Below the pieces are notes generated by a model, which had not been told where the DNA came from, ran no database searches, and saw only the letters and a program-made list of their open reading frames with translations. From NCBI RefSeq assembly GCF_056712565.1, contig NZ_CM160072.1: a stretch of 64,000 nt of DNA, one strand, 5' to 3'. A program made the translations under genes and the position numbers. How positions within the stretch are numbered: position 1 is the first letter of the stretch; every line of letters begins with the position of its first letter. This document shows positions 43,886 through 46,658 of the stretch, in pieces.

Positions 43886-44084
43886 ATTGTATTGTGGCCT
43901 ATATTGAAGCAGCTCAGCAGGAATTTGTTGAGAAAGCCAGAGAGACTGCAGATGATATCTGGGACTTGGGAACTATGTGGGCAAAAAATGTGCTAATTAA
44001 AGGAAGGGAGGTACTGGAGCATGAGGTGAAGTAATATCTAAGAGAAAATCTTGATAATATAATTAAGTGGGGACTAAATTAGAG

Positions 44085-44528
44085 ATGAATATTCAGGCAA
44101 TAAAAGAAATGGTAAATTTAATTTGTAGTTTTTTATTTATATTCTTTCTGTCCTCGGCTTTTGTTTCTTTTGGGTGTTATGCTATTTATGAATTGTTTTT
44201 ATGGAATGATATTATTGTATATAGCTGGGGATATATATTAATTGTCTTTTTACCTTTCACATTATATGTAATGTCGTTTGAGATTTTGTTTTTTGCTATT
44301 AGTGGGCGACGATTGTCTAAAGTAACAATGGTGCGCCTTTGGTTGATAATTAAAATTATTATTGCTTTCTCTATTTGCGCAGTGTTGATTTTTTCTTCAA
44401 TTTACAAAAAAGAATTATTATCTAGAAATTATATTGCTTGTAGTGGTATCCCGTCTGGGTGGATGCCGGGTCTGGCAACGAAATACGTTAAAGAAAAATC
44501 ATTATGCGAAAAAAATGGCAATAATTAA
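44085..44528 (+). CDS. small hypothetical multi-TM protein
   Basis: about 147 aa, four predicted TM helices, extremely AT-rich; possible GTG start at 44067. Confidence 0.4.
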   Translation: MNIQAIKEMVNLICSFLFIFFLSSAFVSFGCYAIYELFLWNDIIVYSWGYILIVFLPFTLYVMSFEILFFAISGRRLSKVTMVRLWLIIKIIIAFSICAVLIFSSIYKKELLSRNYIACSGIPSGWMPGLATKYVKEKSLCEKNGNN

Positions 44529-44897
44529 ATCAATGATGAGGTTATGATGTTTTATCTAAAAAACAATAGAGTAGCGATGTATCAGTAACAGTTAATTTTA
44601 TTTTCAGTGTGAGATTGCTTAATCTTACATGGCAAATAAATCAATGTCATGTAAAACGAAATGTAAATATCACACACTATATTAAAGATGTAATACCCAG
44701 GAAGATGAAGTAACTGACCGGCAATACTATAAGCAAAGTAGTCATTGTTTATTTTTAACAGATGATTGTAATGGTTTTTTAATTGCGCTCATCTTTATGG
44801 GTTATTGTTGTTTTTTACTGGTGTTTTATGAACTGTAAAATATATTTTCTTTTTACTGTTATCTAACTTTTTAGTTAAATGGGAAATAACTCTCTGA

Positions 44898-46658
44898 ATG
44901 GACGACCTGACCCAACGCTACTATGAAGCCGAAATGCGCTACCTGCGTGAAGCGGGTAAAGAATTCGCACAGGCGTATCCCGACCGTGCTGCGATGCTTA
45001 ATCTTGATAAACCCGGCGCACGCGATCCCTATGTGGAGCGCCTGTTCGAGGGCTTCGCTTTTTTAATGGGCCGCCTGCGCGAAAAGCTGGACGACGATCT
45101 GCCGGAACTGACTGAAGGGCTGGTCAGCCTGCTGTGGCCCCACTACCTGCGAACCATCCCGTCACTTTCCGTGGTTGAACTGTCGACAGATCACCGGCAG
45201 ATGAAGCAGAGCGAAACGCTGAGCGATTTTCAGGTATTGTCGCGCCCTGTTGGCGAGCGCAGAACCCGCTGCGTCTACAGTGCCACGCGTGATATCACGC
45301 TGCATCCGCTGGCGTTGCCGGACGTGTCATTGCAATATGAACCGGACGGACGCTCGGTTATCCGTCTGCGCTTTGCGTGCGGCCCGCTGGTTGGTGACTG
45401 GTCGCAGATCGATTTATCCCGCCTGCCGCTCTATCTCAATGCCGACAGCCCGGTAGCCTGTGCGTTGCACCGGGCTTTAACGCTTGGCACGCAGCAGTTC
45501 TGGCTGCGTCTGCCGGGGCAGGATCGCCGGATGCTTGGCGCACACTTTTCCCCGATGGGCTTTGAGGATGATGACAGGCTCTGGCCAAAAGGTGAGTCAG
45601 CCTTCAGCGGTTACCAGTTGCTGCTGGAGTATTTCACCTTCCGCGAGAAGTTTATGTTCGTGGCGCTGAACGGGCTGGAGCAGGTTGCATGGCCGGAGGG
45701 GATAACCGGCTTTGAGATTGACGTGGTGCTGAACGAGAACTGGCCTCACGACCTGCCGTTTGACAGCGATAATATCCGTCTGCACTGCGTGCCGGTCATC
45801 AACCTGTTCCCGCTCGAAGCCGATCCGTTACACCTTTCGCCACTGGAAAACGAATTTCTGCTACGCCCGATGCGCATTCAGGACGGGCATACCGAGATTT
45901 ATTCCGTCGACAACATTATTTCTTCGCGCCATACCGGCAGTCAGGCATATGTCCCCTTTTCCAGCTTTCGTCACCGGGGCGGGATGCTGCGCCACGATGC
46001 GCCGGAACGCTATTACCACACGCGGGTAAAGCGCGGCCCTTCCGGCTTGCACGACACATGGCTGATTCTGGGCGGCGATGCGTTTGATTCCGACCGGATG
46101 CTGGAGGATGAAACCCTGTCCTTAAGTCTGACCGGCACCAACGGGCAGCTTCCCCGTAAAGCCTTACAGAGCACCCTGCTCGATACGCCAGTTCATGCCT
46201 CACAGAACGTCCTGCGGGTGCGCAACCTGTGCGCCCCGACGCAGCCCTGCTATCCCCCGGCGCGTGACCGCTTCCACTGGCGGGTGCTCAGCCACCTCGG
46301 TTCTAACTTTTTATCGATGATGGATAACGCCGAAATTCTGCGCGGCACGCTGGCGCTGTACGACTGGACCGAAAGCGAGATGAACCGCCGTCGTCTGGAG
46401 GCGATTGTCGACGTTCAGCACAGCCTGATACAGCGTTTTGAAAGAGGCTTTCTGCTGCGTGGCGTGGATATTCAGGTGACGCTGGACAGTAACGGCTTTG
46501 CCGGAGAAGGTGATATCACGCTGTTTGGTGAACTGCTGCACCGCTTCTTCGCACTGTATGCCGATATCCACTTATTCACTCAACTGACCTTAATTCTGCA
46601 ACCCACAGGAAAGTGCCTGCAATGGACAGAGCATCACAGCCAGCGCGTACCGGGCTGA
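44898..46658 (+). CDS. tssF: T6SS baseplate protein TssF
   Basis: 586 aa MDDLTQRYYEAEMRYLREAGKEFAQAYPDRAAMLNLDKPGARDPYVERLFEGFAFL. Confidence 0.9.
   Translation: MDDLTQRYYEAEMRYLREAGKEFAQAYPDRAAMLNLDKPGARDPYVERLFEGFAFLMGRLREKLDDDLPELTEGLVSLLWPHYLRTIPSLSVVELSTDHRQMKQSETLSDFQVLSRPVGERRTRCVYSATRDITLHPLALPDVSLQYEPDGRSVIRLRFACGPLVGDWSQIDLSRLPLYLNADSPVACALHRALTLGTQQFWLRLPGQDRRMLGAHFSPMGFEDDDRLWPKGESAFSGYQLLLEYFTFREKFMFVALNGLEQVAWPEGITGFEIDVVLNENWPHDLPFDSDNIRLHCVPVINLFPLEADPLHLSPLENEFLLRPMRIQDGHTEIYSVDNIISSRHTGSQAYVPFSSFRHRGGMLRHDAPERYYHTRVKRGPSGLHDTWLILGGDAFDSDRMLEDETLSLSLTGTNGQLPRKALQSTLLDTPVHASQNVLRVRNLCAPTQPCYPPARDRFHWRVLSHLGSNFLSMMDNAEILRGTLALYDWTESEMNRRRLEAIVDVQHSLIQRFERGFLLRGVDIQVTLDSNGFAGEGDITLFGELLHRFFALYADIHLFTQLTLILQPTGKCLQWTEHHSQRVPG

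Follow-up and report, generated by a model that had tools for sequence, protein, structure and literature searches.

A probable orphan immunity gene of the DUF1240/Tmi family in the tssA-tssF cargo slot of an Escherichia coli T6SS cluster

Genes and remnants in the cargo slot

The DNA analysed here, a stretch of 64,000 nucleotides referred to below as the window, belongs to the chromosome of a B2 ExPEC E. coli and carries a complete T6SS cluster, whose genes are, in this order, tssC, tssK, a gene for an OmpA-domain protein, hcp, clpV, vgrG, a lipase-like gene together with a Tli4-type immunity gene, tssM, tssA, a cargo region, tssF, tssG, tssJ, tssE and vasL. After vgrG (29459-31939), three ORFs occupy positions 31911-34526: the first (404 aa) matches a PGAP1-like alpha/beta-hydrolase, the second (204 aa) is overlapping and has no family, and the third (277 aa) contains a Tli4_N immunity domain. 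The three ORFs resemble a Tle-type lipase effector, which may be split in two, together with its immunity gene.

The cargo region is delimited by two conserved genes, both on the plus strand, namely tssA on the left (39979-41616; Pfam ImpA_N and T6SS_VasJ, RefSeq annotation) and tssF on the right (44898-46658; RefSeq annotation). The current cargo begins with a gene for a PAAR-domain toxin of 527 aa (41616-43199, plus strand), in which Pfam detects PAAR_motif (E=2e-9) and nothing else. The first 95 aa of this protein are 92.6% identical to the PAAR-Tme effector of E. coli AR_0017, which is described further below; GC3 falls from 65% over the first 100 codons to 32% beyond them, and the AT-rich C-terminal region of about 430 aa has no match in Pfam or NCBIfam. 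The presumed cognate immunity gene (43187-43828, plus strand; ORF list and S88 annotation) is a maximal ORF of 213 aa that overlaps the stop codon of the toxin gene, its RefSeq start being at window position 43274, and its product has no family match. Positions 41616-43828 seem to encode an uncharacterised toxin-immunity pair, which many ExPEC strains share.

Downstream of this pair, at 43844-43872 on the plus strand, lies a duplicate of the last tssA codons, which matches positions 41580-41608 at 25 of 29 bases and has a 22-nt core that agrees at 95% with the end of tssA in several strains; by a rough estimate, the match is far too long to be due to chance within 64 kb. This scar adjoins the 3' remnant of a PAAR-Tme effector gene (43879-44081, plus strand), delimited by tblastn and DNA alignment and corresponding to the last 66 of 418 codons. 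Residues 352-417 of the AR_0017 effector align by tblastn with positions 43879-44076 (71% amino acid identity, E=4e-27), and in the DNA alignment with AR_0017 a GAG codon has become TAA, creating an in-frame stop at 44032-44034; a 46-aa ORF (43894-44034) lies inside the remnant. Since the remnant represents the effector tail past the hydrophobic segment, the window lacks the Tme toxin domain itself. When the peptide of the remnant (ETADDIWDLGTMWAKNVLIKGREVLEHEVK) was used to look for an intact effector from which the diverged, window-type allele could derive, only three short E. coli fragments were returned. At 43845-43900, the scar reads ...AAVLCDTQ and then continues out of frame into the effector tail, and compared with AR_0017 there is a 4-nt insertion (GGAT-like), whose removal would bring the tssA end into the frame of that tail. 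This agreement in frame may be coincidental, with a chance of 1 in 3, or may go back to an in-frame fusion once created by deletion.

The gene under study follows the remnant. Its maximal ORF spans 44067-44528 on the plus strand and encodes 153 aa from a GTG start, but the ATG at 44085 is the likelier start, giving a gene at 44085-44528 and a product of 147 aa, since RefSeq uses the same start in S88 and the alignment family members begin there. The Shine-Dalgarno sequence ahead of this ATG is weak. The ORF has a GC content of 29.5% and a GC3 of 27.7%, against 58-61% and about 69-71%, respectively, in tssA and tssF, and against a mean GC content of 50.9% for the window. Between the ORF and tssF lies a spacer of 369 bp (44529-44897; GC 27.9%) with no ORF of at least 38 aa. 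The original prediction had described an extremely AT-rich ORF of about 150 aa that sits after a tssA-end scar and is followed by 370 bp of AT-rich non-coding DNA before tssF, and the size, composition, position and downstream region of the gene all agree with that description. An Rfam scan of 43700-45000 gave no match, and tblastn of the effector, of DUF1240 paralogues and of neighbouring immunity proteins against the spacer revealed no decayed gene or coding remnant. The spacer is 100% identical to that of AR_0017 and is kept even where the ORF has been lost, as in strain FDAARGOS_1261. The number of promoter-like sites (6) was close to that expected from shuffled sequences (6.3), and a terminator scan found a single weak 5-bp stem, located inside the tssA scar; neither result says anything about expression.

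About 1.1 kb around the ORF is 100% identical to the corresponding DNA of UTI89, S88, APEC O1, IHE3034 and the type strain ATCC 11775. The RefSeq product in S88 is WP_001025271.1, a 'DUF1240 domain-containing protein', and in most RefSeq records the label is just 'hypothetical protein'. Our literature searches for work on the E. coli ORF found no study.

Family membership and predicted structure

The homology search proposed with the original prediction retrieved 62 homologues of the ORF product at E<=1e-3, 16 of them at E<=1e-10, when phmmer was run against 1.84 billion representative proteins. These 62 representatives are all about 140-150 aa long, similar in length to the ORF product, and 25-35% identical to it, and they share with it a strongly conserved C-terminal motif, Y..C.GIPSGWMPG.ATKYV....C. 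In the homologue alignment C119 is invariant and Y116, G121, P123, G125, P128, Y134 and C141 are near-invariant, and every one of these residues is kept in the ORF product. When the ORF product itself was compared with PF06836.17 by hmmscan, nothing was found at E<=1; its Pfam and NCBIfam scans yielded sub-threshold noise alone (ABCC10_N, DUF2448, MSC_0624), and a PDB sequence search gave nothing meaningful. By contrast, 35 of 51 aligned homologues match PF06836 directly (best E=2.2e-8), and precomputed PF06836.19 matches exist for a 97%-identical protein (P0001) and for most close relatives. Since PF06836 is matched by the homologues and not by the ORF product itself, we regard the latter as a divergent member, tied to the family via its homologues. 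It is, moreover, predicted to cross the membrane several times, starting with an N-terminal TM helix, and it lacks a signal peptide. Judged by these sequence relationships, the gene is assigned to the DUF1240/Tmi immunity family. Location directly downstream of a Tme-domain effector is a feature present for the AR_0017 allele and for five of six sampled distant homologues and absent in the window, and because the window has no intact adjacent Tme effector, the gene is defined as an orphan.

Tme has been described as a widespread family of membrane-disrupting T6SS effectors, whose domains are found fused to PAAR, VgrG, MIX or ImpA, and DUF1240 and DUF1240-like proteins were proposed as Tmi, the immunity proteins to Tme, following experiments on Tme1/Tmi1 and Tme2/Tmi2, which are Vibrio pairs only (Fridman et al., 2020; PMC7046647). 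Like Tmi1 and Tmi2 of Vibrio parahaemolyticus, the ORF product is a small multi-pass membrane protein without signal peptide that falls in the DUF1240 sequence cluster; as in the Tmi family in general, intact loci encode the gene immediately after a Tme-domain T6SS effector, PAAR-fused ones included (PMC7046647). Unlike Tmi1 and Tmi2, the window gene has lost its partner effector. Because HHpred alone links Tmi1 and Tmi2 to DUF1240, both are distant relatives of the ORF product, to which they are likened by description and not by sequence.

A further point of comparison is YkfM of E. coli SE11 (WP_001236649), a protein of 159 aa that is predicted to have three TM segments and that ends in a comparable C-terminal tail rich in Cys, Gly and Pro. 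It is encoded downstream of the Hcp-linked Tme of SE11, is given in the supplement of PMC7046647 as the downstream neighbour of an E. coli Tme, and differs from the window gene in its locus and in the Tme subfamily concerned (25% identity to the AR_0017 toxin). A pairwise BLASTP comparison (E=0.85, 21% identity, not significant) did not link YkfM to the ORF product. In the SE11 locus L005 (1737-3666; from NC_011415.1), ykfM stands directly downstream of the Hcp-linked Tme homologue, at a T6SS end near yafT, and ykfM too may be a Tmi-type immunity gene.

With regard to topology, the four hydrophobic helices originally proposed were not recovered. The Kyte-Doolittle profile of the ORF product has three peaks, and the AlphaFold2 model built from the homologue alignment (pLDDT 92.1, pTM 0.80) contains three long helices, at residues 3-37, 49-73 and 79-113, while the C-terminal helix (139-145) is short and non-hydrophobic. 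Three transmembrane helices, not four, are therefore predicted. The model also contains a small beta cap or sheet made of loop 1-2 (43-47) and the C-terminal region (131-135), so that loop 1-2 and the C-terminal 35 residues would together form a small cap with the conserved cysteine pair of the family, C119/C141. Basic residues (R75, R76, K79 and R84) cluster in loop 2-3. From the positive-inside rule and the cysteine pair, we infer a cytoplasmic N-terminus, a periplasmic C-terminus and a cap that faces the periplasm and is held by a C119-C141 disulfide.

The lost partner, the slot in other strains and the mosaic gene

In E. coli AR_0017, the slot contains in order tssA, the gene of a 418-aa PAAR protein, the DUF1240 gene, which overlaps the preceding gene by 16 nt, and tssF; LF82 carries the same order. 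Residues 140-373 of the AR_0017 PAAR protein align (E=6e-20) to WP_000908051 of SE11, which the supplement of PMC7046647 lists as Tme, and a strongly hydrophobic segment is centred on its residues 324-339. When six distant DUF1240 homologues were sampled on unrelated contigs, all six stood directly after the same toxin domain (46-70% identity), which was PAAR-fused in four cases, carried in another by a 728-aa protein after a vgrG fragment, and present in the last as a truncated remnant beside a transposase. These comparisons identify the original partner of the window gene as a PAAR-Tme effector whose gene lay immediately before it in the tssA-tssF slot.

Two of the loci outside E. coli AR_0017 and LF82 deserve mention for their own arrangement. 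The locus L006 (3232-7730), from contig JBHTGO010000003.1 of GCA_042666835.1, has an identical tssM-tssA-PAAR-Tme ... tssF layout, and its slot holds four tandem DUF1240 paralogues (144, 147, 154 and 127 aa) plus a 155-aa gene, an arrangement suggestive of an immunity array at this hotspot. In the locus L015 (2509-4450), from contig_6 of ENA ERZ26168101, a DUF1240 gene comes after a 144-aa remnant that represents the C-terminal half of the toxin and adjoins a DDE transposase, and is followed by genes for a DUF4123 adaptor, a Tle1-like lipase and DUF2931; it is a further orphan-like Tmi, in an auxiliary T6SS module.

The distribution of the gene, also proposed as a check with the original prediction, was surveyed in 5426 complete E. 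coli genomes. The tssF gene of this T6SS was present in 1285 of them and the DUF1240 gene region in 283, against 21 genomes, among them LF82 and NRG 857C, with DNA of the toxin domain (megablast and blastn, the latter sensitive to about 65-70% DNA identity or more). The cognate effector is thus missing from 262 of the 283 carriers, so that about 93% of carriers, including all UTI89-type genomes, hold the gene as an orphan; at the same blastn sensitivity, the toxin domain was not found anywhere in UTI89-type genomes. The DUF1240 gene stands behind three different toxins, that of 527 aa in the window, a PAAR toxin of 305 aa in SCU-124 and TUM14697, where the effector remnant separates the two, and Tme in AR_0017, and it is directly coupled with Tme only.

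Disrupted copies occur in several lineages. In strain E6 a 1-nt deletion leaves an N-terminally truncated ORF of 97 aa, a form that is well represented in the database (P0019, 94 member sequences) and that may be common in its identity band (86 records); 1410D004 carries R76*, APEC 16-1068 has two indels that could be assembly errors, and in FDAARGOS_1261 a deletion takes out almost the whole ORF. In the group of at least 99% identity (131 records), nearly all of the matches listed have no disrupted gene annotated under the match. The slot of E6 (locus L002, 5676-12194; from NZ_CP104539.1) holds a stacked cargo made of a 305-aa PAAR toxin, an effector remnant, the frameshifted DUF1240 gene, two tssA fragments with ISEc1 between them, then a PAAR pseudogene and a gene for 140 aa, an order that suggests repeated integration through tssA homology. 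Because such fusions are mentioned in PMC7046647, an ImpA/TssA-Tme fusion in E. coli was considered, and rejected: the 'tssA' features of the E6 type are separate, unfused fragments downstream of DUF1240.

Comparison of the window with AR_0017 showed that the gene is composed of two unlike parts. From 43874 to 44195, which covers the remnant and codons 1-37, there are 76 differences (about 76% identity), whereas from 44196 to 44965 there are none. Within the gene, 88 of 116 positions are identical in 44085-44200, the last mismatch being at 44195. The diverged 5' block (44085-44195, plus strand), which encodes the N-terminus and TM1, differs from the AR_0017 Tmi at 15 of 37 residues (59% identical), while residues 38-147, encoded by the 3' block (44196-44528, plus strand) and comprising TM2, TM3 and the predicted periplasmic cap, are identical to those of the AR_0017 Tmi, which is encoded after the intact effector. 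Among strains, the 5' haplotypes (MNIQAIKEM... or MTINILKEK...) and the 3' haplotypes assort independently, which places a crossover point inside the immunity gene. On this sequence evidence the ORF is read as a recombinant with a breakpoint at 44195/44196 and with codons 1-37 from a diverged allele. The 770 bp without difference (44196-44965) cover the 3' part of the ORF, the spacer and the start of tssF; the flanks of this tract diverge by 1-2%, and along the right flank to 51902 divergence from AR_0017 is patchy and averages about 1%, which suggests a recent shared recombination tract. The dN/dS of the ORF is 0.33-0.5 (0.33-0.38 for the 5' block), a value that is based on few substitutions and indicates only moderate constraint.

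Origin and possible role of the orphan gene

Taken together, our findings make it likely that this intact ORF is an orphan immunity gene belonging to the Tmi (DUF1240) family, left behind after cassette replacement of a PAAR-Tme effector and predicted to confer protection at the inner membrane. An orphan immunity gene from an earlier cargo had been among the suggestions of the original prediction, and it is supported by the DUF1240/Tmi membership, by the intact loci of the AR_0017 type in 21 genomes, by the effector remnant with its nonsense codon and by the lack of the toxin domain in UTI89-type genomes. The gene has homology to an immunity gene of an effector-immunity pair elsewhere, the Tmi of AR_0017, and it lies between tssA and tssF with its upstream effector reduced to a remnant. 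Cassette replacement is the simplest reading of the window slot. A new PAAR-toxin/immunity cassette would have recombined in via the shared tssA and PAAR N-terminal sequence, the resident Tme toxin being displaced or deleted and its immunity gene kept; the 29-nt duplicate of the tssA end, the last 66 effector codons with their nonsense codon and the immunity gene would be what was left behind.

The ORF is probably transcribed by read-through in the run of same-strand T6SS genes. Its product would sit in the inner membrane, meet the hydrophobic segment of an incoming Tme within the membrane or at its periplasmic face, and block Tme insertion or oligomerisation, as immunity proteins do for pore-forming colicins. 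The latter include Cei, with 3 TM helices, and Cai, with 4, and the likeness is a functional analogy between small inner-membrane proteins of 3-4 TM helices that act against a membrane-inserting toxin arriving from the periplasmic side. Protection would be aimed at PAAR-Tme attack by other E. coli, such as those of the LF82 type, and not at self-intoxication. As residues 38-147 are identical to the AR_0017 Tmi, the gene is expected to be still able to protect against an effector of the AR_0017 type.

Retention of old immunity genes in this manner has precedents. The review PMC6730261, after Kirchberger et al. (2017), describes for Vibrio cholerae orphan immunity genes and arrays that arise from sequential effector displacement in T6SS clusters, and it attributes to Ma et al. 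(2017) the observation of orphan immunity genes in E. coli. The window resembles the V. cholerae-type arrays, as the review presents them, in that a new effector-immunity pair was inserted upstream via a conserved flank and the old immunity gene was kept; it differs in that the left arm consists of tssA and the PAAR N-terminus and not of vgrG or an adaptor gene, and in that a right-hand crossover lies inside the immunity gene, yielding a chimeric Tmi.

Three other explanations were weighed against a leftover immunity gene that may still work. That the ORF is a spurious frame in AT-rich junk DNA is hardly credible: AT-rich, T-rich sequence does yield hydrophobic-looking translations, and 'hypothetical protein' is all that most RefSeq records offer, but a chance ORF is refuted by 62 representative homologues of matching length that reach down to 25-35% identity and share a conserved, Cys-containing motif, by a confident AlphaFold2 model, and by a synteny behind Tme effectors that is conserved on unrelated contigs. 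We also find it very improbable that the gene is no leftover but serves the current 527-aa PAAR toxin as an additional immunity or accessory gene. The two genes are indeed on the same strand, less than 900 bp apart and similarly low in GC, yet the 213-aa ORF that overlaps the toxin stop is the obvious cognate partner, the tssA-end scar and the effector remnant lie between the ORF and the current cassette, and the family-wide partner is a Tme-type toxin; since the DUF1240 gene is found behind three different toxins, and directly coupled to Tme only, service to the 527-aa toxin was rejected.

More weight is given to a reading in which the ORF is the same orphan Tmi by descent and is now a non-functional relic, no longer expressed or protective and too young to have decayed, although we consider this considerably less probable than the reading set out above. 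Absence of expression had been the other suggestion of the original prediction. E. coli DNA of 28-30% GC is typically H-NS-silenced, and the composition of the ORF is of that kind, from which silencing of this gene may be supposed. Other observations also count against a live gene: the cognate effector is absent from most carrier genomes, other lineages (E6, 1410D004, APEC 16-1068 and FDAARGOS_1261) have alleles with frameshifts, nonsense mutations or deletions, dN/dS is not low, the Shine-Dalgarno sequence is weak, the translational coupling to the effector stop seen in AR_0017 is broken in the window by the upstream TAA, and the chimeric N-terminus could impair function. Against the relic stand the intact alleles of the window and S88, together with the near-absence of disrupted genes among the matches listed for the group of at least 99% identity; every family-conserved residue is kept, and the 3' two-thirds of the product equal those of a Tmi that follows an intact effector. 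Moreover, no convincing intrinsic terminator separates the ORF from the upstream same-strand T6SS genes, and other T6SS systems are known to keep orphan immunity genes that protect (PMC6730261). An orphan Tmi gene that may still be functional remains the more probable reading.

Going beyond this, we tentatively hypothesize that the orphan Tmi is a maintained, chimeric 'acquired defence' gene, an extension that we hold to be possible but on the whole doubtful. Its 3' two-thirds and the 369-bp spacer would serve as the right homology arm for cargo exchange between tssA and tssF, and intragenic crossovers would create new combinations of TM1 and core that keep or broaden the protection of B2 ExPEC against PAAR-Tme attackers of the LF82 type. 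If this is true, the immunity gene would be both product and substrate of T6SS cassette shuffling.

Since orphan T6SS immunity genes (PMC6730261) and the Tmi family (PMC7046647) have both been described already, the general picture of T6SS effector-immunity evolution is unchanged by this work, to which the intragenic recombination breakpoint, the imbalance of 283 immunity to 21 toxin carriers in E. coli and the structural model are modest additions. For the Tmi/DUF1240 family, the analysis provides a confident structural model with three TM helices and a cysteine-bearing, predicted periplasmic cap. For E. coli, it offers a likely role for a gene that is no more than 'hypothetical protein' or 'DUF1240' in most RefSeq records of UTI89, S88, APEC O1 and about 280 other complete genomes, and it predicts that ExPEC of the ST95 type would resist, through this ORF, the PAAR-Tme effector of strains of the LF82/NRG 857C type. 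The tssA-tssF slot of this T6SS emerges as a cargo-exchange hotspot in which old immunity genes accumulate and decay.
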